A stretch of DNA of 64,000 bases, from assembly GCA_958009085.1 (NCBI GenBank), contig OY253675.1, positions 372,001 through 436,000 of the forward strand. Reading direction: 5' to 3'. Made by a program: the position numbers and the translations under genes. Each line of letters starts with the position of its first letter. Within the stretch, counting starts at the first letter, position 1. The DNA comes from Protoeuglena noctilucae (Eukaryota). Under the pieces are notes generated by a model. The model ran no database searches, was not told the DNA's origin, and worked only from the letters and a program-made list of their open reading frames with translations. This document shows, piece by piece, positions 16,390-52,598 of the stretch.

Positions 16390-19300
16390 CTACTCCTCGC
16401 CGCCGCTGGCGTGGTGCTCCCAGACCTGCTGCACGTGGCCGCAGTGAAGAAGCTTCCCAGCAACTTTCACGGCGTGAAGCTGCCGCCGAAGGTTGCGGAG
16501 GGGCACGCACTTCAGAGCCTCGCCCTCCGCAGGCTCCAGGAGCGACAGCTGGGGAGGCTGCAGCGCTCCCAGGTTGGTGTAGAACGACAAGCACTGGTTG
16601 GACAGGTATCTCAGGTCGCATGGGGCCCTGTGCACCGGGGCCACCAGGGCGCAGAGGAAGGTCCCGGCACCGGAGCTGGTCTTCGCCTCAACCCCGCACA
16701 CGACCCTGCCCGTCTGCAGCGTGCCCCTGTCCGGGAGGTACTCGACGAAGGACAGGGTCTCGTCGGTGGCGACGATCCTGGCCCGGTCCCCGCTGGCCGT
16801 CCCGATCTCGACCGTGGAGGTCAGCGCGACCTCGCCCAAGACGTGGCAGGGAAGCCCCGCGCCCTTGAGGGCGTTCAGGAGGTCCGCCTTAGAAACGAAG
16901 TCTTCCGCGCGTCCCTCGCTGCACAGGTCGTTCTTCTTCAGGACGGTCTTCACGCCCTTCACTTGGTCCTCGGGCTGGGACGGGACCGGCTGCTCCGCCC
17001 TCGCCCGGCTCTTGATGACGGAGGCCGCCCTCTGAGAGATGACGCTGGTGCTCGCCTGCGACAGGGCTGGGGGGTCAGTCCAGCGCGGCTCAGCATGGCA
17101 CGCGGGTCGAGCGCCGTGCGACCGCATCGAGACGTGTGAGTCGCAAGAAACGCGTCCTGCGTGGGCTTCCCCGCGTCGCCTACGCTGGGCGGCGCTTCTT
17201 GCCTGTACCTGCACGTCGCCCTTGCCGTTCGTGCGCGCGTTGGCAATGGGCTTGTGCATGCGCTCGGCGTCGTTCATGCTGCCCAACATGATGGAGCCGT
17301 TCCTCGCCACCACTGCAGGGAAATGCGAAAGCGCGTGGCACTTCTGGCTGTTCTCGATCTTGCTGAAGAGGGGCTTCTCCGTGCGGACGATTTCGTGGCC
17401 ACGCAGCAGCGTCTTGAGCACGACCTGCGGCGACACGGCAGCGACAAGGCTTCCAGAGTGAGTAAGGGGCAGCGAACGATGGGGCTGGTGTTGGAGAAGG
17501 CCTCACGTGGAGGACCTTATTCAGCTGCGCGTCCGCCGCCTGCGCCCCTGCGATGGTGGCGCTCTCCAGGGACCATTCGGCATAGAGCTGAAGGCATGCC
17601 AGGGCTACGGCCACGAGCCCAACCCTCTCGTCGTGCACGTCTTTGCTGCCCGTAGGCTCTGCAAGGGATGTGGTGGTGGGGAAACACTCCCGGGGTTCCC
17701 CGGCCCGCATCGCGATACCCGCAGCTCCTCCCGATGCCCTCGCAGCGCTGACTGTCGGCCTCGCCTCGAGAGAAGAGCTCGACGAGGGCGAAAGGCAGAG
17801 CTTGGATCAAGAACCTCGCCTCGTACGCCTTTATCTTCCCAAACGGGTCCACGAGGCTCAGCACGATCTGGAAGGTCTCGCCCCACGGACGGGCGTGGAT
17901 CCATGCCGGGGCCTGCGCTCCACCCACACGACGATGGACATGCCAGGTGAATACCGAGCAGCTGCGGCGCCACTGCAGGCAACGCACGCCATTGCCTGAC
18001 CTGCAGCTCACCTTGGCATCCGCAATGATCGATGCGAACGCAGCCAAGAGGGCGTTTGCCTTTGTCGCAGACTCTCCCGCTGCCGCGTTGTTGTAGAGGA
18101 CGGTCAGTATGCAGAAGGGAACAGTCTTGCCCAACATTCCCAGTTCCACGGTGTGCATGGGGTCAGGTGCTTGGCCCTGATACAAGTCCGACCCGAACTC
18201 GTCCCAGTACGACAGGGCAGGAACCACAGGATGAATTTTGCTCTCCCTGGCTTGTTCGTTGGCCCTGGCCGTCCCCACGTCCCTCCTCAAGCGCAGGATG
18301 TGCTGCACCTGGAGGCGATGCAGCGCGACGGTGCGAGGCGTGCGGCAGTCATCCTGGAGGCACAGCGGGCACGACCTGACGGCCAGCGTGGACGAGTTGG
18401 CCATCATGTCGTTCAGCTGCGCCGCCAAGACGGAAAGACGATGACTCTCCCGACGTCGGGGAGGGTCATCCACACCCCACCGGACCTCGCCACGCCAATC
18501 AGCTGCCGGTCCACGGCAGCCAGCCGCCGCTGGATGGCCTCTCTGTTGTTCAGGTCTGCCTGTGACCCCGGAGTGATCCCGGACACCTGCGGGGGCCTCG
18601 AGCGACAACTCATACACGCGGCGTGGTGGTGGACGTGTGGGCTGCAACGCCGGCAATCCTCCTCTCGCCTTCATGGACTCGACGGTGGCCACGGTTCGCG
18701 GCGTCCCTGTCCTCACGGCCTTGCAAGGCGACAGGAGGTGCATGTGGATGGGCGTCGTCGATGCGCCCTTGGTCATCTCCACCCCGTCGATGCTGTACGC
18801 GACCGGCACGAGGAGCAGCCGGGCGTGCAGCTCGGGGCGGACTTTGCCAGCGACAGCCTCGGCTATGTCGCTATACCCCTTCGCCCGGGAGAAGGTGAGC
18901 TTCTCGTGGATGCTGGGATGCGTCTCATGTGGTCTCGCCCGCGCCTGGCGTGACCGTTCCCGTGCCTCGCTGAAGTCTCGCATCAACTTAACGAGCGTCT
19001 TGGGCTTGATCTGCTCCGCGTGCACCAGCATGTCCCTCAGCACCGTTATCGTTTGGTAGATGATGGTTGTGCTGCCCTCCTCTTGCAAAACCTGCAGGCC
19101 GTGCGTGCACTGGTTGGCGTCAGCCCCCTCGGCCGCGTCCGAGGCCCTCGACACAAGCGGCACCGCGGCGTGACGCACCTCGTACTGGCCATGGATGCTG
19201 TTGAGTGAGGTGTGGAACGTGCGGTGGGAGCGCCCGAGGTCGAGAAGGTCGTCGCGGATGTCGGGGCGCAGCTTCACGAAGCAATCGAAATGCGCTGCCG

Positions 19301-19892
19301 TCAGCGATGCCATGAACTGCGCCCCTGCTTCAAGTTGGCTCAGGTACTCATCGTCACTGTCCCTGCTCCTGGCCCGCCATGCCTCCAGGTCCTCCGGCAG
19401 CTTCAGCGGTTCGTACTCCCCGGGCGCAGGAAGGTAGGAGACTCCAGGAGCGTCCTCTTGGGGCGCATCATGCGCTCCGGCGCTCTCGGGCGGTTCACCC
19501 CTCTCCGAGTCAATGTCCACGTCCATGTCCACGTCCGTGTCGGCGTAGTGGAGCCACGCGAGTCCTACATCTTCGCTCTCGCCATCACTGCCCGCAGCAA
19601 CGTCCGCCGTCCCGTCTTCCTCCCGCAGTTCTTGGTCTGGTCCCGCGCTGGCGCTGTCGCGTGCCAGCCCGTCCGAGCCTCGCAGAGACGGAGAGACATA
19701 GTGTTCGTGTGGGGCGGCGGGGCGGGGTGCTTCCTGGCGGCTCTCCTCGCCATATCTCCAGCCCCACAGCGCAGGGCATCTTTGCTGATGCCGGGCGAGC
19801 TTGGCCGGGGTATCGAATTGCGTTCCACACGCGTCGCATTCGAGCATGGTGAGCTGCAGCGCAGGTTGCGATGCAGGGTTCAAGGCGGGCAT
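16390..19892 (-). CDS. Plavaka-type (EnSpm/CACTA-related DDE) transposase with N-terminal zinc finger; ~7 exons; apparent 1-nt frameshift near 18432
   Basis: N-terminal CDACGTQFDTPAKLARHQQRC zinc finger; VPVAYSIDG (first D); GGVWMTLPDVGRVIVFP/VLAAQLND..CPLC; DLYQGQAPDPMHTVELG (DxxH motif); KCHALSHFPAVVARNG....NDAERMHKPIANARTNGK. The order and spacing match my recollection of Plavaka/EnSpm-like transposase motifs. Confidence 0.75.
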
Positions 19893-21153
19893 GGTGAGGG
19901 CGTGGAAGCGGAGGTGAGGAAAGTCCAGCGCGCGCTCTGTGGGTCAGGCAGGCTCAGGGGTCGTCAGTCCTCCAGGCAAGCGGGGGTGGATTGCAGGGCT
20001 GCAGCGACAGCACCGCGCACAGGCGAGGCTCGGCGCTGCTGGTGCGAACAGCGCTGGATCATCGTCCCTCTCTAGGGTGAGAGTGCAGCCTGCTGCTGAG
20101 CCATCTGCGAGGTGTGCTGACGTGGCTGGGGAGGGGAGGGGCCAGCTCCCGTGAGGTGAGATGCAGCATACGCATGACTAGATCAGGTCGGACATTGTCG
20201 CTGTCCCCGAGGTGCGCGGTTGGTCTGCTGCGCTACCGGTGGGGTCTGCGACACGGTCAGGTGTGCAAGGGGGGGTTGGTTGGCTGGGAGGGACGAAGGG
20301 CTGGTCCGCCAGCGTGGTATCTCTGTACTTGCTCACTGTACCTGGCACCGTGCCTGCACTCTCTCACCCCGAGACTGACTCTAACTTCGCCTAACAAGCA
20401 CGCAGGCGCACGTGCCACCTCGTCCCAAGTTCCGGCGCTGGTCGGGTGCTGGCCGGGCCCGCCATGGCTCGTCCGCCGACCCATGCCCCTTGTCTGTCGT
20501 CTGGCGTCCGCGGCGCCCCGCAGCGGTGGTCATCGACTCCTGGGGCGGCCGTCGGCACGGCGGAGTCGCGCACGCCACCATCTCCCGAGTGCCTGGCCCG
20601 AGTGCCGGAGCGCCGCTCCCCGATGGAGCGGCAGCGTCCGGAACAAGCGGTCGGTGCCTCTGGCGGTGGTCGCTGCGCGCTCCCGTCGCGCCTGCGGCCG
20701 CCCGAGTCCGGCTGCATGTGCGTGCATGAGTGCGTTGCCTAGAGCGTCACGGATGGTCATGTAACCTCGGCGTAGGGATTGAAATACCAATAGCTACGCT
20801 AGGGAGCGATTACGGGCCGAACGGAGCCCCCCGGGCCGCGCGGGCCCCGGAGCGCGCGTGCCCAAAAGATGCGTCCGATCGCGATCAAGATAGGTCTGAT
20901 CGCGGCCGAGAAGGAAGATAGGCGGCGGGATAGCCTCGGCTAACGCTTCCGGCGCCGCTGCGCTCCCGAGTGGGCCCCGCTCCCCGCGATCCCCGACCAC
21001 GACGAAATGCCGCGAAACTGCTCCCAGCGGCCTCTCGCATCCCGGGTGCGCCGTGGCCGTAACCGCGCCGCGTAAAACGGCCTCCCCAGGGAGATCGGGC
21101 GCGCGGCTGGAATCACTGGGCTCAATGAGGGTTTACATTACAGTCTGTGTCGT

Positions 21154-38238: not shown

Positions 38239-39471
38239 TCAGCCCCAAGCGCCCGCCCCCTGCGCCGCTACGAGCGTCACTGCCCCTTGCTTACGGGCAC
38301 GCATCCAGTCGGCCTGGCCCAGCTCCCTCGCCTCGCGCAGGGCCTCTCGCAAGGGCTGCGCGTCCCCGGCCCAGCGCTCCACCAGCCGGTCCAGGGCGCC
38401 CGCGCTCGGGACGCCGTGAATCGCCGAGACGACGTCCTCGAGAGGGACCCCGAGGTCCACGCCGTCGTCCACGGCGAAGCACTGCAGCTCGGCCCACATG
38501 GCCTCCAGGTCCGCCGTGCTGTGGAAGATGGGGCGTGTCTCGCTATATATCAGACGGTGCTGACATCTATAAGCATCGCATTATTGCGAGGCAGGACTGC
38601 GCCGAGCTGCTACTCGCCTCAAATCCACGTCGGGGGCGTCGAGCGTCGCGGGTAGGTCGCTGACGCGTGGCACCTCCCGCCTCGGCAGCGCAGCCCCGCG
38701 GGTTGCCTCGCCGGGCTTCTTGGGCACAGAGCCGGGTTTGTGACTTAACCTCACGCGCGGCCCCGCCTCCGACTGGCGCTCCTCGACCCCACGCCGGCTG
38801 TCACCTCGTGCCTTGGCACTGCGAAGGGACAGCGGGGCGCCCAAGCTGAGCCGAGAAGGCTCAGCTCCTTGCACCGGGCGACGCGGCGGGTCTCCAGCAG
38901 CTCCAGCCAGCCACACACCTGGGCAACCTTCCCTTGCCAACTGCCGGCAAGACGATCCTCGACGCTGACGCTGCGCTCCCCAGGCGGGGGCTGTGGGGCG
39001 CCGTGCTGGCCTCTCCCTGCTGCCCCCTCGTCTCCGGCCGCGTCGAGCTCTCGGTCGGGGGGTCGTCGGCGGCCGCGCGCCCCTGCAGCTCGGCGTGCAC
39101 GCGCGCAAACAGCTCCGCCTGGCGCTGCTCGAGTTTCCTGGCCAGCGCCTCGTCCTTCTGAGCCCGCGCCGCGGCAATAGCCTTCTCAAACTCCTCCTCT
39201 TGCTGCGCGAGGTACGCAATGCGCGTCCGCATCGCCGCTGCGGGGGGCGGGGAGAGGCGACATGCTCTGTGCGTCAGCAGGGCCGCGTCGCCGAGGAGGC
39301 CGTCTGCGGGCGCGCCGGAAGCTCACATAGCTGGGCATCAAGGTCCTTGTTCTCCCTCTGCAGCTGCGACAGCTGGTTGGCCTTCAGCCGGCCGGAGGTG
39401 CTTGCGCCGAGCATGCGTGAGGGCGGGGGGCCCGCGTAGGGGTTGGCGCGGGCATCGCGAGCTCCCGCCAT
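38239..39471 (-). CDS. Unknown coiled-coil protein, ~4 exons
   Basis: Coding-like segments MAGARDARANPY..QLQRENKDLDAQL, MRTRIAYLAQQEEEFEKAIAAARAQKDEALARKLEQ and MWAELQCFAVDDGVDLG..GAWG*, separated by intron-like gaps. Confidence 0.6.
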
Positions 39472-39889
39472 GGACTCTAGAGGTGTTGAACGTGCTCAGC
39501 GACGGCGACGCGTGGCAGGAATCTGCTGTGTGCTGTCTTCCGACTAAAAGCGGAGTGAAAAGGGTCTTTCGTCGACAGGAACGCCTCTATTGGCACAGGC
39601 GTCACAGGCCAAACTGCACCGTTGCGAGCCCAAGAAGTTACCCTGCGAGGTCAGCCTGTGCTGCACACATAGGGTAAAGCTCGCGTGGCGCAATCGACCG
39701 CACATCGCACTGGCCGATGTCGGCAGTCTGCAACGGTGGGAGGATTCTCTACATCGCTGCAAAGATCCAGGGCTGAATCGCGGTCCTGAGAAATCTCGCC
39801 CGCTTGGGCCTGATTGGGCACCGCTAGCGGGAAACGTCGCATCATTGGTCGGAATATTGATAGCGTTGGAGGTGGAGGGCGCGCTGCGG

Positions 39890-42800
39890 ATGCGGAGAGG
39901 CGAGCGACCCAGCGAGAGAGCGCAGGCGTGCAGGATCCGCTTGTGCGCAGGCTATCTTGCTTCCAAAGCATTCCTTGTGTGATCGAGTATACCGCGGACG
40001 TGGATCCGGCCGAGCGGGGTGGCCTGGCTGCCGTCGGGAGCACTCCGCTGCTGGGATAACTGTGCTCTGCATTTTCTTCGCCGCTTGGGGTCGATTCCGG
40101 TCTCAGCTTCACAGGCGCGTTGATATTCTTTTTGCAGTCGCGGTGGAGGTCGTCTGGGGTTCCCAGACCCGCGAGACGACGGTGGAGCTGGGGGAGGGCG
40201 ACGCGCGCTACGCTGTGCTCCATGCGGCGCGCGCGGAGCTTCCGGGGGGGTTCGCTGCGGTCAACATGGATCAAGTGACTGTGCTTCTGCCCGATGACAG
40301 GCCCGCGCGGACCGATGAAGACCTGCGCGGCCTCCGGGAGGGCTCCAAGCTGAAGGTCGTCCTTCCTGCCCAGGTGACGCCCGCGCGCGACCCCGGCGCA
40401 GCCGCGCGAGGGGCCCCGATGCATCTTACACAGACATTGCACCTCGCTGCACTCTTGTTGACCCCGCAGGCCTCCGGCCGGGTCGAGGCGGTGCAGTTCA
40501 CGCCGCATCCCAACACGGTGATTATGGCCGGAGACCTCGAGTACTTTGAGTCCAACGGCGCCCACCCATTGGCCTACGCCCTCGCCGAGCTGATCGACAA
40601 CGCCATGCGCGCCACGCGTGACAACCGAGAGGCCCGCAACATCGACGTCAGCTTCGTCCTTGGTGAGTGGCGACTCGCGAAGTGGCCTCTTAGCATAAGC
40701 TTCCTCCGGGCTGGCACAGTCACAGCCATTTGAGCTCTCAGCAACGCCATCCCCCAGCCCTCTTGGCACTGGCAAAGTGCATCTCAGCTTCCTGCACGGC
40801 CCCGCTCGCAGGCCCGAACGACCAGGGCGTGATTTATGTGGAAGACAACGGCTGTGGCATGGACATGAAGGCGCTCAACCAATGGGCGATCATGGGGCTA
40901 TCGATGGAAGATCGCGGGGAGCGGCCAGTCATGGAGGAGCCGCCGGGGCTGCGTGGTGCCGCCAGTCACGACCCCGGCCGCTTCCTGTCCAGCGATCTGA
41001 GCTTCTTTGGCGTCGGATCCAAGAACGCGGTCTTCTACCTCGGCAGCTGCGTCAAGATGGTCACGCGGGCCAAGACATCGAGTCAGGTGCTGGAGCTGGC
41101 GATCCGTGCGGATGAGCTGCGGGACCGGCATCACAAGGGAGAGAACCCTTACCAGGGACAGATCACGTTCCGTGACCCGGGCGACGACAGCACGTTGCTG
41201 ACGGAGGAGGCGCGGCTGCAGGCGGCGAGGGAGAGGGTGGCGAGGGAGGTGAGGAGCTGGTGGGTGGCGATGGATGAGGGAGGTGGCGTGATGATGTGAG
41301 GTGAGGTGATGGTGGTAGTTGCTGCAGCCAGCGTTTCCAGCCAACCCGTGGGACGTTACGATAAAGGGTGTCAAGAGTACCTGGGATGCTTTTGTGTTCA
41401 ACACACTCACATACCACGAAGCGACCGGTGCGTTTGCCGTTTGCAGGCGTCCGCGGGCCCGGCCTTCACCCGCGTCATCATCACCAACCTGAAGGACCGC
41501 GTGCTGGACAGCCTGCGATCGGAGCACAGCGACAGGGTCTGCCGGCACCTGGCGCACCTGTACCACTACTACCTGCACGGGTCGCAAGGCAACGTGGCCG
41601 ACGCGCCGCCCGCCAAGCTGCCCGGCGGGCAAGTGCGGCCCACGATCCGCGTGCAGTTCATCGAACAACGCCAGGGCCGGTCCGAGGTGGTGTGGAGCCA
41701 CGACCTGCGGGAGGTGCAAGACGATTTGGAGACGCGGTATCTGAGAAACAAGAAGTCTACGCTGCATTTTGCCTACGACGTGCCCGACAAGGGGACCGTC
41801 GAGGGCGTGCTCTGGTACTTCCCGTACGACCACGACCGGTGAGCTGGGCTGCACGGTGCATGGGTGCTGTGGCGTAGGCACCACAGCAGCTCAGCCGCCC
41901 AGCCGTCATGCTGGCCGTTACACGAGAGACGCCCGATATGCTCGACGTAACGCCTTCCTTCTAATGCGCCACCCGCAGTGAGACGCTGCCCGTCGACGAC
42001 ACCGTGGACCCCAAGCCGCCCTCCCAGCAGGCCCAGCGCCCGCACGCGCGGCCCGACCCTTCCCGCCTCTCCGGCGCGGCTGCCCGCCACTCCGGCGCCG
42101 GCAGCAGCGGACATGGAGCGGCGGACGACGATGATGACGACGAGGTCCAAATCGTGAACACGCCCAATGCGCCATCGGAGCCCCAGCGCGGCCCCATCTT
42201 CGAGCTCTTCTGGCAGGGCAGGCTCATCCCCGGCGCGCACCTGGACTCGCTGCCTTTCATTGACGAAACGAGGATGGGGCGGAGTGCGACGGACAGGGGT
42301 GAGGGCATGGGGGATAGCGAGGGTGTGAGAAGTGTTAGGGAGGGTGTGGGGGTTGGTGAGGATGTGAGGGGTGTTGGTGAGGGTGTGTGGGGCTCTAAAG
42401 CGCGCAGGGTGGCGCGTTGGTTCGCACGCTGACGATTACAAGTGCAGCTAGTCGGCCAATCACGCCTGCACGCAGACGACATCCCCGACGCCGTTTTCCT
42501 GCGCATCCGCGGCGCGCTGTTCCTGGGCCCTGCGTTCGGCGTCACTCGCAACAAGCTGACCTTCCGCGACAACATCGCGGAGCTGCTGAAGGACGCGCCG
42601 GCAAAGGACAGGCGAGGGAGCAATGCGGGAGAGGCATGTCGTCATGCGGGGCACTTGTTAGTATCACTGTCCATAGAGATGGGAGGAGGGTGTGTTGCAG
42701 TGTAACTGTGCACCTTCATGCCCCACTCACGCTGCTTCTCCCACTGCCCCAGTCAGTGCCCCACTCCCACGTTTCCCACCCCATGCACCTAGCTTGCCCG

Positions 42801-45800
42801 TCTCACCATGGCATGCACCATCTCTGCAGGAACCTGCAAAAACACTTCAAAAGGTGGCTTAAGGAGACCCACCAGAAGGAGGACAAGGTCATGGTGCTGA
42901 AGGGCATTGCGGATCCCGAGCAGCAAGAGGAGATACGGGTGCGTGGAGAGGGCATAGCTGTATAAATGGCATGCCCAGCAACTGTGATGCAGGTGTGCGT
43001 GTTGGGTACGTGCGTTGGAACGCTGGTGGCTGAACACGGCAAGCAATGGCCAACGATGCACTTATGCTCGTACTTGCAGAAGACGTACAAGGGCCGCACT
43101 CTCTACAACCGTGTCGTGGTGGGAGGGCCTCGGGCCAGGCAGTACAAAGCGGGCGACTGCGTGCAGGTGCACACGAAGCCGATCGTGGTGGGTGTCGTGA
43201 AGGGGTTTCTGGCGGATAAGATCCACGAAGGCGACCTTGACACCGGCAGGTGAGGATTGTGCTTTGTTATTTGCAGGATTTGTGGTTGACGGCTGATTTT
43301 CGTTGTGCTCGCGTGAACGCGATAAAGATATCGCCTACAGCTGGAGAATTACTTATTCTTATAGAGAATGAGCATATACCACCTGTCTTCTCCCCGCACC
43401 CAGCGGCTTTGTGCTCCTGAACCCGGTGCCGACGCCCCTTCACGCCAAAGAACTCAAGGACTTCCCTATTACGCGCATCGTGAAGATCGTGACAGATGAG
43501 GAGAGGCGGGCGTACGAAGAGGCCCAGCTGAAGAAGCTGCCGTCGCAGGTGACGAGGATACAATGCGGAATACGATGAGCGTGCTACTGCATGCATATAA
43601 GTATATTTCTCGAGTATTCATGCGATATTTTGATCGGGCGGGCGGATGGATTGCGCGCACGGGAGGGTTGGCTGTCGTCTGCGACCTTTTGCGTAGGTGC
43701 GCTTCAATCACAATCACCGCATTCTTTATTTCAACTAAATCCGACCTGCGCTGCATTCGTGTCCGCAGATGGACGTGCACTTCTGGTACCGCGGCCCGGA
43801 CAAAGAGGAGGCGGTCGACAAGCGAAAGAAGGTCCCGACCAACGGGGTCACCGTCAAGGCCGGGAGCAAGCTGCCGGGGATGCTCGTGGCGGTGACGGAC
43901 GGCCACGGCAAGGCCGCGAAACGCAAGAGCGAGCGGGGGCTGACCTGGGCCCTTCAGGTCAAGCAGGTGGGATTCCGAGTGATCAACAAGCGCAGCGGGG
44001 TCGGCGCTGACGGGGGGAGGGCGAGGGCCACCCGCACCCAGCCGCAACGTGCTGCGGCGCCGCGTGCCGAGGGCGAGGGCGAGGATCGTGCTGAGGGTGC
44101 GAGGGAGGAGGCATGGGAGCTGGTCAACAACCACCCCTACAAGGAGAACCTGTACTACTTTGAGCCCAAACAGGCGAGGAGTCGGGTTATTTGTGGCTCT
44201 GACTATGACTCTCTCACTAGTACTACAATTATGACGATGACTTGTTTGTCATGACTCGAACCCCTCCTCGTGCTTTCCAGATGAAGGAGACGGGCGTGTT
44301 CATCATCGAGCACGTCGTCGAGCTGGGCATTGAGGGCGTCGCTCCCATCAAGCACAGCACGACCGTGCGCGTCACGGGGGCAAACCCCACCGCGGTCCGG
44401 CTGGGTGGTCCGGGCGTCGAGCATTTGGCCAAGGGGTCGCCGATGCTTCTCGAGACGATGCCGGACATCGTGGTCGAATTTATGGACGAGTTCGACAACC
44501 CCACGGCGCTGCCTGACACGTTCGACGCGGCCTCTCTGGCGCTGCGACTGGCGGCGCAGGGGCCCGAGGGACCCGCGGAGATCCTGCGTCTGGAGTTCGA
44601 GTCCTGCGAGGCGGACGTGGAAAAAGGCACGGTGACGCTCCGGGCGCCCCGGGTGGCGGGGGACGAGGCGAGGGCGGAGGCGGTGCGGTCGGTCTTCCAC
44701 GCCAGCAAGGGGAAAGGCACACGGGCCCAGGTCACGCTCAGGTGACGGGGATGGGGTTGTAGATAGGGCTGGTAGTAGGTGATGTTATGTTACTGCTTGG
44801 GTGAGGTGAGGTGATGGGTGAGTAGGGGGCGGCGAGCACAAGGGCATGAGGCCGGTGTCCGATTCGAACTTACCCTCACCCTCTCCTAGTTTCCCATCCG
44901 CAGCGTCTCTTATCCCAGCATGAAGGAAGACCAGCTGGGATTCGATCTCCTGTCCGGGCCCCCCGAGGCCCTCCGACTCGAGGAGTCCCACGGCGCCAGA
45001 AACGCGGACCCCTCCTCCGCCAGAAACGCGGACGCCTCTGATGCCGGAAACGGGGCCGCGGGCAGCGGGGCGGGTGCCGGGGCGGGCGAGGGCGGGCGAC
45101 AGCGTGGGCCGGCGGGGGCGGTGAAGGCATCGCCAGCGGCGGTGGGGGCGGGGACCTCCAAAGCCACAGCCGCAGCCACGGTCACGCCCACTGCCAAGGG
45201 CTCAGGTGCTGCAGGCAAGGGGTCAGGTGCAGCGAAGGGGTCAAGTGCGGCCAAGGCGGCAGGTGCGGCAGGTGCGGGGTGGGCTGGTGGTGTGACCGAC
45301 TGTCCTTTCACAAGGCTCACACAGCTGAGGTTGCAAACCTGTCTCTCACTTTGTTATTGGCTTATCTGTTGCCACTATCAATGCAGGATTGGCAGGTGGA
45401 GGTGCAGGTGGAGGGCCTGCATCAGAGGGGGATGCGTTTGCGTTGGAGGTGGACTCGGGCGCGGCGTCTCTCATGCTGTCGTTCCTGGCGCTGGACCGGT
45501 ACGGCAACAGGGCTACCTTGCGCAGGTGGGGGGGTGGTGTGGGGATGGGTGGGGTTGTGGCTGGGTGGGTGGAGAGGTTTGCGGGTGCTGGTGTCTGTGC
45601 GGGTGCTTGCACGGGTGTCGACGACCGCCCCTGCCTCACACACGCCCTCACTCACTCACACCAACACACCCACACCCTCACCGTCACTGCTACCCTCACA
45701 TGTTCAACCCCCACCCACCTCCCTCACCCTCTCATCCCTCGCAGCGACCTGGATGCCCGCCTGTCCCTCACCTCCCCGCTCCTCGCTCTCACTCCCAACC

Positions 45801-48800
45801 TCACACACATCTCACACAGTCCCAACACACACCCATCTCCCTCACCCCTCGCAGCGACCTGGACGCCTGCCTGTGCCTCTCCTCCCCGCTCCTGGCCCCC
45901 GGCCCCGGCGCCCCTGACGGCGCCCCGTTACTCCCCGTCGAGTTTTCTGACAGCGCCGTCGCCACCGTCAGGGACCTCTCCTTCGCCCCCGTGCCAGAGG
46001 GCGCCAGTGTGGCCGTGTCAGACAACGCCGTGTCGGTCTCAGCGCTCGTGGAGGCGTGGATCGACTTCGAGGGGCCGGTGCCAGAAACGTTTGCGCACGT
46101 GTACCCGGGTACGACCCCGCATCGGGGGGCGAAGAGGGCGCGGGCGAGCGGGGCGGCGGAGGGTGCGGGTGGGAGGGAGACAACGAGGGTCGGGCTGCTG
46201 CGGGGGAGGCTGGTGAGGGGTGGGAGGGGGTGTGGGTGTGTTGGGGGAAATGTGTGAGGTTGAGGGCTGTGTTGATGATGTGAGGGTGGGGCGTGTGAGG
46301 TGCAGCTGTTGTGGTAGTGCTTGTTTATTGCTCCCTCTCCCAGCGCTCTCATCTCCATCACCCCACATCCGGCCCTCTCTCTCTCTTCCCACCCCACGCA
46401 GACCGTCACCCCCAGCACCGACCCCGCCACCATGACAGTACATTACCAGGGCCAGCCCCTCCCCTGCACGCCGAAGGCCATTGAGGAGGGGGCGGACCCC
46501 ATCCCCGTGTTCGAAATGCCGGGAGGTGAGGATTTGATTTAACAATTGAATATATGTTGTAATTGTCATGTATGTTACATCGCTATGCATCGTTGTGTTT
46601 CGCCTGAACCGCTCCCACTGACCCGGGCACCCACTCCCATAAACTCACTCCACCCACTGCCACCCCCACCATCACCCCCACTACCACCCCCACTGCCACC
46701 CTTATGACCACCCTTACTACCACCCCCAACCCCACCCCCAGCCTTCCCCGTGGCCACCACCCTGGACCGCGTCACGCTCCACATCGTCGACGAGGCAGGG
46801 AGAATCGTTCCCAAACCTCTGTCGGGTGATATCAAGGTATCCTGGGACCCAAGAAATGCGATACCGGCAGAGCCCACCATGCCCCTCAGCTGGAAACTGC
46901 CAGAGGAGATATGTGCTCTGGCCCCGGTGTTCACGATCGATTTCTACCAGAAGGTCGGAAAGAGGCGGACGAGCAGGCACATACGGGTCGGGGTGCAGGT
47001 GTGTGTGGGGGGGGTTGGGGTGTGTGTACGTGTGTGCGGGGCTGTGGGTGCTGTGGTGTTGGGGTGCGGGTGCGGGGGTGTGTGTGCTGTTCCATATGTG
47101 CTGTAATATGTAATTCTGATATTGCATAATCAATACTACATCTCGTGATATTGTATTCGCTTTATTCTATTCTCCCCTCTCAGGTTCGCCTGTCCCCCGG
47201 CCCCCCCCACCAGTACGCGTTATCGTTCGAAAACCCCGAGAGCGCCGACCTGCAGAACGGGCAAGTGCGAAACGGGGAGGTGGCGAGGATCGAAGTGCAG
47301 ATCTTCGACCAGTACTACAACCCCACGCCGCCCAGGGACGACCTGCCGGAGAGGGAGGTGAGGGGGGCGCGATCGTGGGTGGAGCTTTGGTTTTGAATTT
47401 ATGAATATGATTGATGTTCGCTGTAGCCTGCCATCGTGTTAATGTACTTATTTGTTTATTATTTTATATTTATTTTAGTTTATATTATATGTTTATTCTG
47501 ACCTGTTTTATTATTACACTTGCAATAATAATGTTATTATTATTATTATTTCCAGACGAAAACTCAATACCCTCGCACCCCCCCCGCAGCTGGTGGCGCT
47601 CCTCCTGGAGTCATCGATCGACGACCCCCTCCCCTGCCCCTACTCCATCCACGTGCTGAGCGAGGCGTGGTGCAAGAAGAGCAAGGACGCGGCAGAGGAG
47701 GGGGGGAATCAGGTGAGGGCACTGTGATTGTTATAAATGGCGTGGGAATGTGTGTGGTAGCCGTGACGTTGGCTGTTGTTATGATTCCAAATATTGTAAT
47801 TATTATTGTTTGTTATTACTCGTATATTATATTATGTAAGTATCGCCCCCAGGCCGACCAGGCGGTGGAGGAGGACGTGGTGATGTACCGGGTCAAGTTC
47901 TCGGGGCCACCGGGGAAGTTCAAGTGAGGCAATGCGAGTTGCATGGTTATCTTATTAGTATCGTTATTATCCATGCTCGGTCAGTGCCTGGTGTTGCCTT
48001 TGGTTCCCCCATTTGGATGCGCAACATTGCCACGCACCCGTCTACCCCAGCCACGCCCCAATAGCAAATGCAATACGTAATATGCAAAACATCATCATTC
48101 AACCACCCCCTCACCCATCACCCCAGGGTGGGCGTCCGCGACCGTTCCGGCCCGAACGGCGCCTCGCGTTTTCTGACGGACGACGTGCAAGTGGAGATGC
48201 TGCCGGGCGCGCCCTGCCGGCTCGAGTTCTCCGGCCCGCCGCAGCTGCGCAGGCCGGTGCGGTGCCGGCTGGAGGGTCTGTCCGTGCGGGTGGTGGATGA
48301 GGGGGGGTCGCTTTGCAGTCACGTGGGTGGTGCGGGGTGGGAGGGGCGCAGCGTGGAGGTCTTGCTAAGCAATGCGGCTTTGGAGGAGAGCGGCGGGGGT
48401 CTCGCGGCGAAGGTGGGGTGCGCGGGGGGCAACCGGGTGGCCGTGGTGGATGGGGTGGCGGTGCTTCCGCCTGTGACGGTGTCGGCGGATCGGCCGGGCA
48501 CGTACCTGCTAGATGCGGAGCTCCGGAGCCGGGACCTGCCGAATGTGGAGCGTGCTACGCTGCGGCTGGTGCTGGAGCCGCGCAACGCGTGCACGGGGCT
48601 GCGGGTCGATCCGGGCAGCGTGGGGCGGGGGGTGGAGGCGGGGCAGGCGGCGGTGGTGGCGGTGGCGGTGCAGACGGAGGACGGGAGGCCGCTGGACTCG
48701 GAGGCAGGTGATTGTTAGTGTTATTATTGCTTTATTATGATAATAATAATAATTGTAGTAATTGTAATACTGGTGATAATTGTAGTAATTGTAATATGGG

Positions 48801-51800
48801 TAAACGTAGCAGCGGGGAGATGCGGGCGGAGGACGGAAGGCGAAGCAGGTGATTGCAATGCATGAAATTCATGATATTCTGTTTTATTATTTTTAATATT
48901 TTATTCATATTATTGTATTTGTTAGTTATCAACTGGATAATAACCGAGCGCGCACATCCCCCGCCCCCGCAGCCTCCGCCGGCCTCCGTCTGGCCATCAC
49001 GCCCCCCTCCGGTCGCAAAGCGGACGTCTTCCACGTGTTGCCGGAGGCGATCGAGGCGGGCGGCATAAGGGAGGCGAGGTTCTGTGTGCAAGGGCTCACC
49101 AAGGCGGGCAAGTACGGACTGATCGCCGAATTCAAAGAGACGAGGGCGGACCTGGCCAGAAAGAAGGAGGCGACGATACGGTGAGATAAGCATAGGAATG
49201 GTAATTGTTAATTACCATTATGGTAGTATTTGTGGCTATGATTGTGATGACTTGCCGCTACTCTCACGCCGTCGCCCAGTGCTTTGCAGTTCACAACTCA
49301 ATGTACCAATTACATTCGCCCCATTCCCTTACAACCGCAGCTCCTCCGCCGCCGCCCTCCTCGTCTCCCCCGGCCCCGCGGACACCGTCGCCCTCCTCTC
49401 CGGCGCCACCCCCCACCGCGCATGCACCAACCGCGGCGGCGGCGGCGCCCGGGTCATCGCGGAGGCGCCGATCTTCGAGGCCCGCGACGCCCACGGCAAC
49501 GCACTGCCGGGTGGCGCAGCTGCGGGGCAGATGCGGGTGCGGGTGGGGTGGGCGCGGGGGCCGTCGCAGGCACCCCCGGGCGCATTGCTGCCCCGGATTA
49601 CCGTGAACAACGAGGAGCTGCCCGATCCGAACCGAAACGCCACGGATGGTCCCGTGGACTATCCGGAGATAGAGGCTGACGAGGTGGGGCGGTTCGTGCT
49701 CGGACCCGTGATGGTGGTGGAGGGGACCGGGCAGATGGGCGAACGTGCTGTGGACGGTGCCAGTCAGCCCTTTGGGATGGAGTTCGTGGTGGATTTTGAA
49801 TGGCGCCCCCCGGGGCAGGACTACTTCAAATCGGCGTATACGGTGGAGGTGGCGGTGTGTGATGACGAGCACCGGGCACGGGAGGTGCAGGTGAGGGGGT
49901 GGGGTGGGGTGATGGTTGGTATTGTGTTTGTGTTTGTATTGATGATTGTACAGGTGAGGGGTTACTGGGTGATGGTGGGTGAGCAGTGGGGTGGTCGTAT
50001 CGTTTAGTGGAGTGGTGACGGTACTTGCGAAGGGTGGGTACTTGCGCAGTGGCCTATACCATAGTCGACCATTATCACACAAAACAGCAAACCATTCTCA
50101 ATTTATCATCCTCACACTTACCCCCACACTCTCACCCCACCCAGCGCACGGACCGTGAGCTGGCGTCCCTCACGACCAAGCGCGACCGGCTGCTTCAAGA
50201 GGCCAAGGAAATGGAGGAGAAGCACGAGACGGCAAAGAGGGCGCTGGAGAGATTCAATCGGGAGATCGCCCGGCTGGCGAGGGACGTGGAGGCGGGGGCG
50301 CCGGCGACGGCGGAGGAGTGCGCGGAGATGGCGGGGAGGATCAAGGTGAGTGATTGGTGATGGGATGAGATGAGATGGTGGGAGATGGTGTAGGGGTGGC
50401 CAGGAGGGTCAAGGTGAGGGGGTAAGATGGCGGGAGGAGATGTGGAGATGGGATGATGCGGGTTGCTGGTTTGTGGCATAGGGTCTATTATGGGGTACCC
50501 CACATCCCCACCCTCATACGCAGGCGGAGCTGGCGAGCTCCCGCCGCCCGTACCGCCCCCCCCGCATCGAGGGCTCGCGCTGGGCGCCCGTGCGTCGCAC
50601 GATCGAATCTCTCGAGGCCCACCCCCCAATCGACGGCGTGATGGGCTTCATGGTTCGCCTTTTCGCCATTGATGATCCCCAGTTGGCTCGGGTACTGTCG
50701 GCACATATCGGACCCACCAAGCTGGCTACGCTGGTGGTTAACGATTTCGATGCGAGGCGAAGGGCGGATGCGGTGTTGAGGGGCCCCAAGGGGACGTATA
50801 TGCCAGACCGGTTCGTCATTCAGGGCGCGTTGCGGGGGAAGGAAGCTCCGGGGGAGCTGCAGGAAAGGTGAATGGGGGGGGGAATGCGAACAGTCACGTT
50901 GTTGTTAGTTTACTTTTAGGAGCTTTGTCATTGCAGGACAGGTGAGGTGCTGCCCTCACCGCCACCCTCACTGCCACCCTTGCTACCACCCACACCCCCA
51001 CCCCCACAGCGCCCCCCCCCACGTGCGCCAATTGCACGAGGACGCCTCCCTAGGCACCGACCCCATTCTGGCATACGAGTTGCCCCACCAGCTCGCGATG
51101 CGCAACGCCGGTCTGACGGAGGACGCGGCTCGCCAGAAATGCGAGCAGGCCAACGCCGCTTTCATCGACCCAGACGCGTGGCCGGAGGGGCTGCTCGGAT
51201 ATGTTGCGAATCTGATCCGGCCCCTGCGTCGCGAGCTGCGCGCAAAGGTGCTGTGGCCCATCTTCGGAAAGTGCATGCTGTTTGACCGACTGGAGAACGC
51301 CGAGAAGTACCGGTGAGGATTTGATGGTTTTTGTTATGTTTGGTTATAATTATTATAGTATTTATTACAATAATACTGTATTAGTCATGTTGTTTGACCG
51401 ACTGGAGAACGCCGAGAAGTACCTGTGAGGATGAATAATTATCAACAAGTATTGACTACAATTACTAGTTTTTAATTATTCAATGGAAATTGAAAGTCCA
51501 TAAATATTATATAATTATCCTTTCTCCCCACCCCCCCAGCGGCCTGTGCGTCGCGCTGGGCGTGGGTACTGGCGAGTTGCTCTGCATGACGGGCGACCAC
51601 ATGACGGCGTCCGGCATCATCCGCGGCTCGTCGGGTGGCGTGGACGTGAGCAGGGACCCGGATGTGATGCTCGGATCGACGGCTGCGGGGGAGGGGGCAG
51701 AGGACATGAGGAAGGGGAGGTGAGGGGCGTAATGGGGTTTAGAATTTACAATTGTTATAGTTACTACTGTAGCAGTGTATAACAATAGATGAGGAGGGGG

Positions 51801-52598
51801 AGGTGAGGGGTCGGATGTGGTGGTGTAAGTACTGTAAACACAGTACTTACAATTGTTACGATTGCGATCATAACAATCGTACTATACGATATTAATTATT
51901 TATATATTTTACAATTAGCAATATCTTTGTCGAATATGCTTCCATTCCCGTCACGCAGGGCGCTGGAGGCGCTGGAGAGTCTGCAGGAGGCCTTGGAGGA
52001 AATGGACCGGGCGAGGATGTATGTAATTATTATATTATAATAACATTATTATAATAATAGATACATTTGTTAATATCATTTGATCTGAATTTGGATTGGT
52101 GCGTGCGAGCACCTCGGCGCGAATGCCCTGACTATACTTAGCAGTATACTTGATACTAGTATCACAGTGGCATATGTGATTATCAATTATCATAGATAAT
52201 GTTATCACGTTATCCACTATCCATATTCCCCACAGCTCAAGAAGGAGGAGGAGGAGGCGCGCGAGGCCGTGGAGGGCCGCATGGATGAGACCATGGCTGA
52301 GGTGAATGAATTGGAGACGAGAATCGAATCGTTGAAAGCAAAACTGGGGGTGTTGCAGGGGAGGGCGCCGGCGGGGGCGGAGGGGGCGGGGGAGGGGGGT
52401 GCGATGGTGAATGGGGTGGGCGGGGCAGGTGATAGGGCGGGGGGCGGTGGGGTGGGGATGGGGGTGGGCGGGCCTTTGCCGATGGCTAAGGCGAAGAAGA
52501 GGAAGGGTGGAAGTAAGGGGGATAAGGGGGATAGGGATAGGCGGGGTGATGGGGAGAGGGAGAGGGGGGAGGGGAGCAAGCGATCGAGGCGGGCGTGA
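39890..52598 (+). CDS. SMCHD1: SMCHD1/GMI1-like protein: UBL-like N-terminus, GHKL ATPase plus transducer, long beta-rich (Ig-like) linker, coiled coil-SMC hinge-coiled coil, basic tail; >25 exons; start exon tentative
   Basis: PHPNTVIMAGDLEYFESNGAHPLAYALAELIDNA, VEDNGCGM..LNQWA, SSDLSFFGVGSKNAVFYLG, HLAHLYHYYLHG, EGVLWYFPYDHDRETLP, IFELFWQGRLIP, RIRGALF..FGVTRNKLTF follow vertebrate SMCHD1 motifs in order. The hinge region is GVMGFMVRLFAIDDPQLARVLSAHIG, GLLGYVANLI, IFGKCMLFDRLENAEKYR, LLCMTGDHMTASG. Confidence 0.9.

Follow-up and report, generated by a model that had tools for sequence, protein, structure and literature searches.

The fusion of a MORC-type module to an SMC (structural maintenance of chromosomes) hinge was already characterised as "a distinct ancient eukaryotic lineage" by Iyer et al. 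(2008; PMC2292703). SMCHD1 has been studied almost only in mammals: the catalytic residues E147, N151 and K525 and an acidic transducer loop have been described for the human protein (PMC6620310), which was furthermore reported to bridge and compact DNA by means of a flexible linker, a process that ATP is said to tune and not to drive (bioRxiv 10.1101/2025.07.08.663435). In Arabidopsis, GMI1 (AT5G24280) combines a GHKL ATPase with a C-terminal SMC hinge and has a repair role (PMC5651269), and DMS3 is described in PMC4607528 as an angiosperm-restricted, hinge-only protein of 150-700 amino acids. Here we analysed a stretch of 64,000 nucleotides from the alga Protoeuglena noctilucae (hereafter the window), in which an earlier note had proposed a full-length SMCHD1-type protein encoded on the + strand at 39890-52598. 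The gene is the single SMCHD1-family gene of this alga, is vertically inherited within green algae, and represents a further species in a known pan-eukaryotic family that is already present in the databases for green algae. By analogy with animal SMCHD1, its product most probably works in the same way, as a hinge-dimerised, ATP-gated, DNA-bridging clamp.

The gene model was built from splice signals and the joints of RNA contigs, the latter assembled from four runs of one marine metatranscriptome study. After removal of 27 introns (25 GT-AG and 2 GC-AG), the 28 exons between 40140 and 52598 form a frame of 2,469 codons that no stop interrupts. With the inferred first exon included, the gene comprises about 29 exons and 28 introns (3 GC-AG) and its open frame encodes about 2,473 amino acids; the GC donor of the additional intron (39900-40137) is similar to the gene's two other GC donors. 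The protein aligned collinearly and end to end with a profile of ten green-algal-type relatives (1,566 bits). All motifs named in the earlier note were recovered on the + strand and in the order given there, namely ELIDNA (40587), DNGCGM (40844), FGVGSK (41006), HLYHYY (41555), FWQGRLIP (42208), NKLTF (42550), D.YGN (45500) and GLLGYVANLI (51188), with RETLP being interrupted by an intron. The span proposed in that note likewise fits the model, from its predicted first exon to its end, and the description as a full-length SMCHD1-type GHKL/hinge protein is supported. The features are compiled in Table 1.

Table 1. Features of the SMCHD1-family gene and its neighbour, in window coordinates
Feature	Position	Strand	Basis or remark
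Predicted first exon (start codon ATG at 39890), 10 nt	39890..39899	+	In-frame join; no RNA joint seen here
Ubiquitin-like (UBL) pre-ATPase region, one exon	40138..40373	+	Match to algal-relative profile
Strap, GHKL motif I (catalytic Glu/Asn), motif II, Gly-rich motif III; exons 40470-40662, 40812-41248	40470..41248	+	HATPase_c_3; 6MW7
ATPase end and S5 transducer, including acidic loop and switch-loop Lys; exons 41447-41838, 41979-42298, 42476-42611, 42830-42938	41447..42938	+	Pfam SMCHD1_S5; 6MW7 alignment; GC-AG intron starts at 42612
Beta-rich post-transducer domain, two exons, located where SMCHD1 has its predicted BAH domain	43080..43548	+	Homology to P0169 261-305
Long linker made up of Ig-like beta-sandwich domains in tandem, 13 exons	43769..49890	+	Fold match; 7 introns RNA-confirmed
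N-terminal coiled coil of hinge region, one exon	50145..50345	+	Weak coiled-coil Pfam matches; alignment to relatives; both flanking introns RNA-confirmed
SMC-type hinge with long inter-subdomain insert; exons 50524-50867, 51010-51312, 51540-51719	50524..51719	+	Profiles; introns RNA-confirmed
C-terminal coiled coil and basic tail resembling a nuclear localisation signal; exons 51959-52022, 52236-52598	51959..52598	+	Coiled-coil frame as in relatives; last donor uncertain by 4 nt
Divergently transcribed spliced neighbour gene, separate from the SMCHD1-family gene	38618..39585	-	Well covered by RNA contigs; two minus-strand introns

The RNA contigs over the window contain at least 15 joints, and among those listed, 2 fall in the neighbour gene and 13 in the SMCHD1-family gene. 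Twelve of the 28 introns of the model are confirmed in this way, all of them in the linker and hinge part (45526-51958); as these joints went into building the model, the independent point is that the frame stays open across them. Transcription was seen for the 3' two thirds of the gene. The thirteenth joint, carried by one contig, connects 52018 to 52236 with a donor 4 nt upstream of that in the model, which would lead to a short Arg-rich protein end and remove the last coiled coil. The relatives support the coiled-coil frame of the model, and one contig cannot settle the choice. Apparent insertions and deletions at 49359-49366 were attributed to foreign RNA contigs, as the matches are short and have loose ends.

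Among solved structures, human SMCHD1 (6MW7) was the only clear match of the main ATPase exon (E 1e-14), which agrees with the closeness to SMCHD1 that the earlier note had drawn from the motifs. When the profile of the ten algal relatives was run against the PDB, the SMCHD1 ATPase 6MW7 scored 350 bits, followed by the Smchd1 hinge (57.8), DMS3 (38.1), Thermotoga SMC (22.6) and MORC4 (12.9). An identity as MORC was rejected, as MORC structures reached 12.9-17.4 bits, which is noise level, versus 350-767 bits for SMCHD1. The HATPase_c_3 match in the strap and motif exons stayed below the cut-off (E 6e-5), and SMCHD1_S5 (Pfam PF22899) matched three exons in order (E 4e-7, 1e-7 and 1e-5), two of which pass the curated cut-off. 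Alignments indicated that the equivalents of human E147, N151 and K525 as well as the acidic transducer loop are kept in the algal protein. In the Atlas, an ATPase exon led to unnamed clusters, and the hinge of a relative to generic SMC hinge clusters. The region ahead of the strap, whose place and size are as expected, scored 21 bits against the same region of the algal relatives, a value reached by none of 500 shuffles, and 8.8 bits against a mixed profile, above all 500 shuffles. A ubiquitin-like domain before the strap is likely, although these profile scores do not prove it.

Animal SMCHD1 also has a long linker of Ig-like domains. The algal linker exon 48127-48707 was predicted to be all-beta, with a predicted local distance difference test score (pLDDT) of 89, and the best fold match of its model was an Ig-like domain (Z 10.5, root-mean-square deviation 2.4, 102 residues aligned); matches of Pfam PF26198 on the relatives suggest such a linker in animal SMCHD1 as well. 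In the model of the relative P0169, the transducer is followed by tandem beta domains, and its residues 261-305, homologous to the two post-transducer exons, were modelled as beta strands. A BAH fold could not be confirmed, as no BAH structure occurred among the fold matches listed, which were filled by Ig-like arrays. The linker additionally carries a Gly/Ala-rich low-complexity insert near 44990-45440.

Single hinge exons found no match in Pfam, PDB or protein databases because they are short and diverged, and the hinge was recognised through profiles of relatives instead, with a hinge profile score of 127.5 bits. At 233 amino acids, it lies within the range of the green hinges (214-271), those of the animal-type and the remaining relatives being 151-184 and 165-197 amino acids long. 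At the start of the second half-hinge, a GxxG motif is present in all nine green, in 14 of 24 other protist-type and in none of 14 animal-type hinges, and also in Thermotoga SMC. Judging from this distribution, GxxG is the ancestral hinge state, changed in animals and not plant-specific, and the special link to GMI1/DMS3 that the earlier note had seen in the hinge motif is not supported.

How the protein might act can be drawn from its animal counterpart. Two copies would be joined at the C-terminal hinge, and long flexible arms of Ig-like domains would bear the GHKL ATPase heads. ATP binding would shut the heads via the strap and the ubiquitin-like domain (PMC6620310), slow hydrolysis would reopen them, and the dimer would contact DNA at several points and bridge or compact chromatin, presumably without loop extrusion. 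Dimerisation, ATPase activity and DNA bridging are thus attributed to the algal protein by analogy and are to be read as expected properties. As to its cellular use, we tentatively suggest that it may repress repeats or compact chromatin, perhaps with a side role at DNA breaks. The animal-like reading finds some backing in the genome, which by its frames encodes a MET1/DNMT1-like methyltransferase and has SRA-domain matches at five places; a DNMT2-like methyltransferase was read from the frames as well.

Some observations weigh against such an assignment. An animal-only profile found no match in the UBL region (84 of 500 shuffles scored as high). Section 6 of PMC7458401 lists DNA-binding arginines of the mouse Smchd1 hinge, R1867 being one of two with a cellular phenotype; the algal equivalents of R1848 and R1796 are Arg, but those of R1790, R1867 and R1869 are Tyr, His and Thr, so that three of the five positions checked differ. 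This speaks against carrying the animal mechanism over one to one. Furthermore, no listed RNA contig spans the ATPase to the hinge, and 15 of the 28 introns are supported by splice signals, frame and homology alone. The lack of a spanning contig would also suit a reading in which the region consists of two adjacent genes, one for the ATPase and one for the hinge, or in which the model is mis-joined, as would the little RNA cover of the ATPase exons, in which none of the listed joints falls. Nevertheless, one frame remains open across 28 introns, the protein aligns collinearly over its full length with relatives that are single chains, among them Volvox XP_002946452 (2,576 amino acids), and the relative P0025 is nearest in both the ATPase and the hinge tree. 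We consider two genes or a mis-joined model barely credible and infer a single ATPase-to-hinge transcript, and retain the clamp as the most probable reading of the gene.

The ATPase-profile search covered 1.84 billion representatives and gave 1,147 matches at E <=0.001, of which the best 150 were examined and 30 looked up by name; no match was found in phage genomes. All 57 proteins of at least 850 amino acids among these 150 match the gene model, and animal-type proteins rank directly after the algal ones. The relatives looked up include Volvox carteri (2,576 amino acids), Cymbomonas tetramitiformis, the choanoflagellates Didymoeca and Stephanoeca, as well as Heterostelium, Willaertia, Diplonema, Gefionella and Nonionella, and four records are named SMCHD1 or SMCHD1-like. 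Full-length relatives are present in Volvox and also in choanoflagellates, amoebozoans, discobans and foraminifera; the Cymbomonas protein comprises ATPase and linker. This spread across eukaryotes accords with the ancient origin that the earlier note had suggested and that Iyer et al. had stated before. The occurrence in a green alga, by contrast, is less of a surprise than supposed, as two members of its clade, from Volvox and Cymbomonas, already bear the UniRef name 'SMCHD1 ribosomal S5 domain-containing'.

Separate phylogenies of ATPase and hinge, as the earlier note had envisaged, both place the gene in the green-algal clade, with MORC and GMI1 left out of both trees; the labels green, animal-type and other were assigned to most relatives from the trees themselves. 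A quick ATPase tree, computed from 68 rows that each cover 390 or more positions of the profile, put the gene into a 16-row clade with Volvox and Cymbomonas, with a Shimodaira-Hasegawa-like approximate likelihood ratio test (SH-aLRT) support of 100. A careful tree of 27 chosen rows separated a green (100/99), an animal-type (100/98) and an amoebozoan/discoban-type clade (100/99), and the green clade was not nested among animals; this tree does not resolve the branching order of the three, and neither ATPase tree resolves a sister relation of green and animal ATPases. The hinge tree, with 47 of 48 rows, joined the gene with P0025 and P0031 at 99 within an algal group at 96 SH-aLRT. There, the greens join the amoebozoan/discoban-type rows at 94 SH-aLRT only, from which we conclude nothing. 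Both kinds of tree agree on P0025 as the nearest relative, and as ATPase and hinge receive the same placement, both ends share one history; there is no indication that the parts were fused recently or that the gene came from animals. As a separate observation, amoebozoan, discoban and malawimonad SMCHD1-like ATPases (P0094, P0108, P0116, P0147 and others) form one strongly supported group apart from the animal-type and green ones, a grouping at odds with the species tree and perhaps a sign of ancient paralogy or of long-branch effects.

The strongest competitor of the animal-like reading is that the main job of the protein is repair of DNA double-strand breaks, as an algal GMI1 orthologue that keeps sister DNA or broken ends in contact. 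In its favour, ATPase and hinge are arranged alike in GMI1, which acts in repair (PMC5651269), recruitment to breaks is also reported for human SMCHD1 (PMC4004971), the placement in the ATPase tree points to a green alga as the host, and with the algal hinge profile DMS3, the plant hinge relative, scores above canonical SMCs. If both lineages hold one gene per genome, orthology to GMI1 would be the simplest guess. However, GMI1 measures 1,600 amino acids (PMC4607528 supplement) versus about 2,470 for the algal protein, no GMI1 was recognised among the best 150 of 1,147 ATPase-profile matches, 30 of which were looked up by name, and where the animal-type proteins come next after the algae, and the hinge profile returned no GMI1 among six matches from 8,000 scored candidates. 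We regard a mainly repair-related role as the less likely alternative, albeit one with appreciable weight, and it is compatible with the same clamp biochemistry.

Another conceivable role is that of a fused DMS3 and MORC6 in small-RNA-guided DNA methylation. The algal hinge is similar to that of DMS3, DMS3 and MORC6 have been proposed as an SMCHD1-like unit (PMC5651269), and the genome (26.3 Mb, 27 contigs) contains cytosine methyltransferases. Against this stand the restriction of DMS3 to angiosperms (PMC4607528) and the ancestral nature of the shared hinge motif. An exon-by-exon search of the genome revealed no Piwi match, with a control that rang in 2 of 14 genomes and with split genes that such a search can miss, and no PAZ match, with a control that was silent too. 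The alga may lack Argonaute-based RNA interference, and the missing matches constitute a weak argument against a role in methylation of this type. We judge such a role very unlikely. An identity as DMS3 itself was dismissed, as the algal protein has about 2,470 amino acids and an ATPase. The SMCHD1 kind is represented in the genome by a single ATPase locus and a single hinge locus, both at this gene; there are in addition canonical SMC hinges and a separate divergent MORC-like GHKL ATPase gene (L013, G000:C4:118758-121940) with HATPase_c_3 matches only; a Morc6_S5 search of the genome gave no match, its control being silent too.

A bolder proposal, which we hold to be rather unlikely, is that chlorophytes have retained a catalytically intact, animal-like SMCHD1 and not just a GMI1, the latter being either a strongly remodelled descendant or a separate ancient paralogue, and that the algal protein silences repeats or integrated viral DNA without Argonaute. 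If such an Argonaute-free silencer distinct from GMI1 were real, Volvox-type algae would be a genetically simple model in which to study what a human disease gene originally did. The practical value of the algal gene is that, being single-copy and present in unicellular algae, it would let one ask which came first, compaction and silencing or break repair. Our literature searches for SMCHD1 in green algae, Chlamydomonas, protists or the last eukaryotic common ancestor, with subscription papers outside their coverage, retrieved no relevant study among the papers listed, and neither SMCHD1 nor GMI1 comes up in the main texts of an SMC-evolution preprint and of a plant MORC paper.

Several features of the introns and of the surroundings were observed besides. 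Introns 45526-45854, 51313-51539 and 51720-51958 repeat their own exon-intron junctions almost perfectly (20, 21 and 21 of 22 nt), against at most 17 of 22 nt among the gene's other introns, and weaker copies occur in introns 50346-50523 and 48708-48972; the copies look like locally duplicated splice sites and could serve as alternative ones. Several introns of the 3' half (47358-52235) are AT-rich, with a GC fraction down to 0.31-0.38 and TAT/ATT runs in a window of 65% GC, and the observed/expected ratio of CpG is 0.66 in introns versus 0.99 in exons. The neighbour gene at 38618-39585 lies head to head with the SMCHD1-family gene at a distance of about 300 nt, and one of its frames gave no Pfam match. 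The neighbouring genes are housekeeping ones (beta'-COP, ribosomal L2, TRAPPC13-like, ARM repeats) and do not suggest a functional cluster. An 808-codon open frame on the - strand (17520-19943) has no Pfam match and a C2H2-like pattern at its start, and perhaps belongs to a mobile element. Elsewhere in the genome, four apparently intronless cytosine methyltransferase frames of bacterial or viral type (L002:1357-2556, L003:1375-2472, L004:1375-2472 and L009) lie on different contigs as two near-identical pairs, possibly as parts of mobile or endogenous viral elements, and a second copy of the MET1-like gene's last exon lies on the other strand at a distance of about 25 kb (L008, L006; contig C20).

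Compared with known systems, the gene is closest to its green-algal relatives (Volvox XP_002946452/UniRef100_D8TJI8, Cymbomonas KAK3267358, P0025 and P0031), which share its ATPase-tree clade and domain order, its hinge-tree clade where a hinge is present, and 32-41% identity over the N-terminal part. The algal gene differs from them in its many more introns and in the Gly/Ala-rich linker insert, and from the Cymbomonas record (1,508 amino acids) in possessing a hinge; literature searches found no functional study of these proteins. Vertebrate SMCHD1 (human ATPase 6MW7, mouse hinge 6N64) has in common with it the pre-ATPase domain, which is likely in the algal protein, the strap, the GHKL motifs with the E/N/K triad, the acidic transducer loop, the long linker and the short coiled coils around the SMC hinge, and animal-type relatives show about 27-32% identity over 600-700 amino acids; the algal protein is, however, about 470 amino acids longer than vertebrate SMCHD1 and retains the ancestral GxxG where animals have a GNP motif. 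The MORC family shares the GHKL and S5 module but lacks the hinge and the Ig-like linker. The hinge of Arabidopsis DMS3 (6OIS), which the algal profile matches at E 2.4e-9, is a homologue with P.G.LG...N and G.R.T..Y patches in common, yet it scores below the mouse Smchd1 hinge, and DMS3 has neither ATPase nor Ig-like linker. GMI1, compared by description, shares the GHKL ATPase and the C-terminal SMC hinge within the green lineage.

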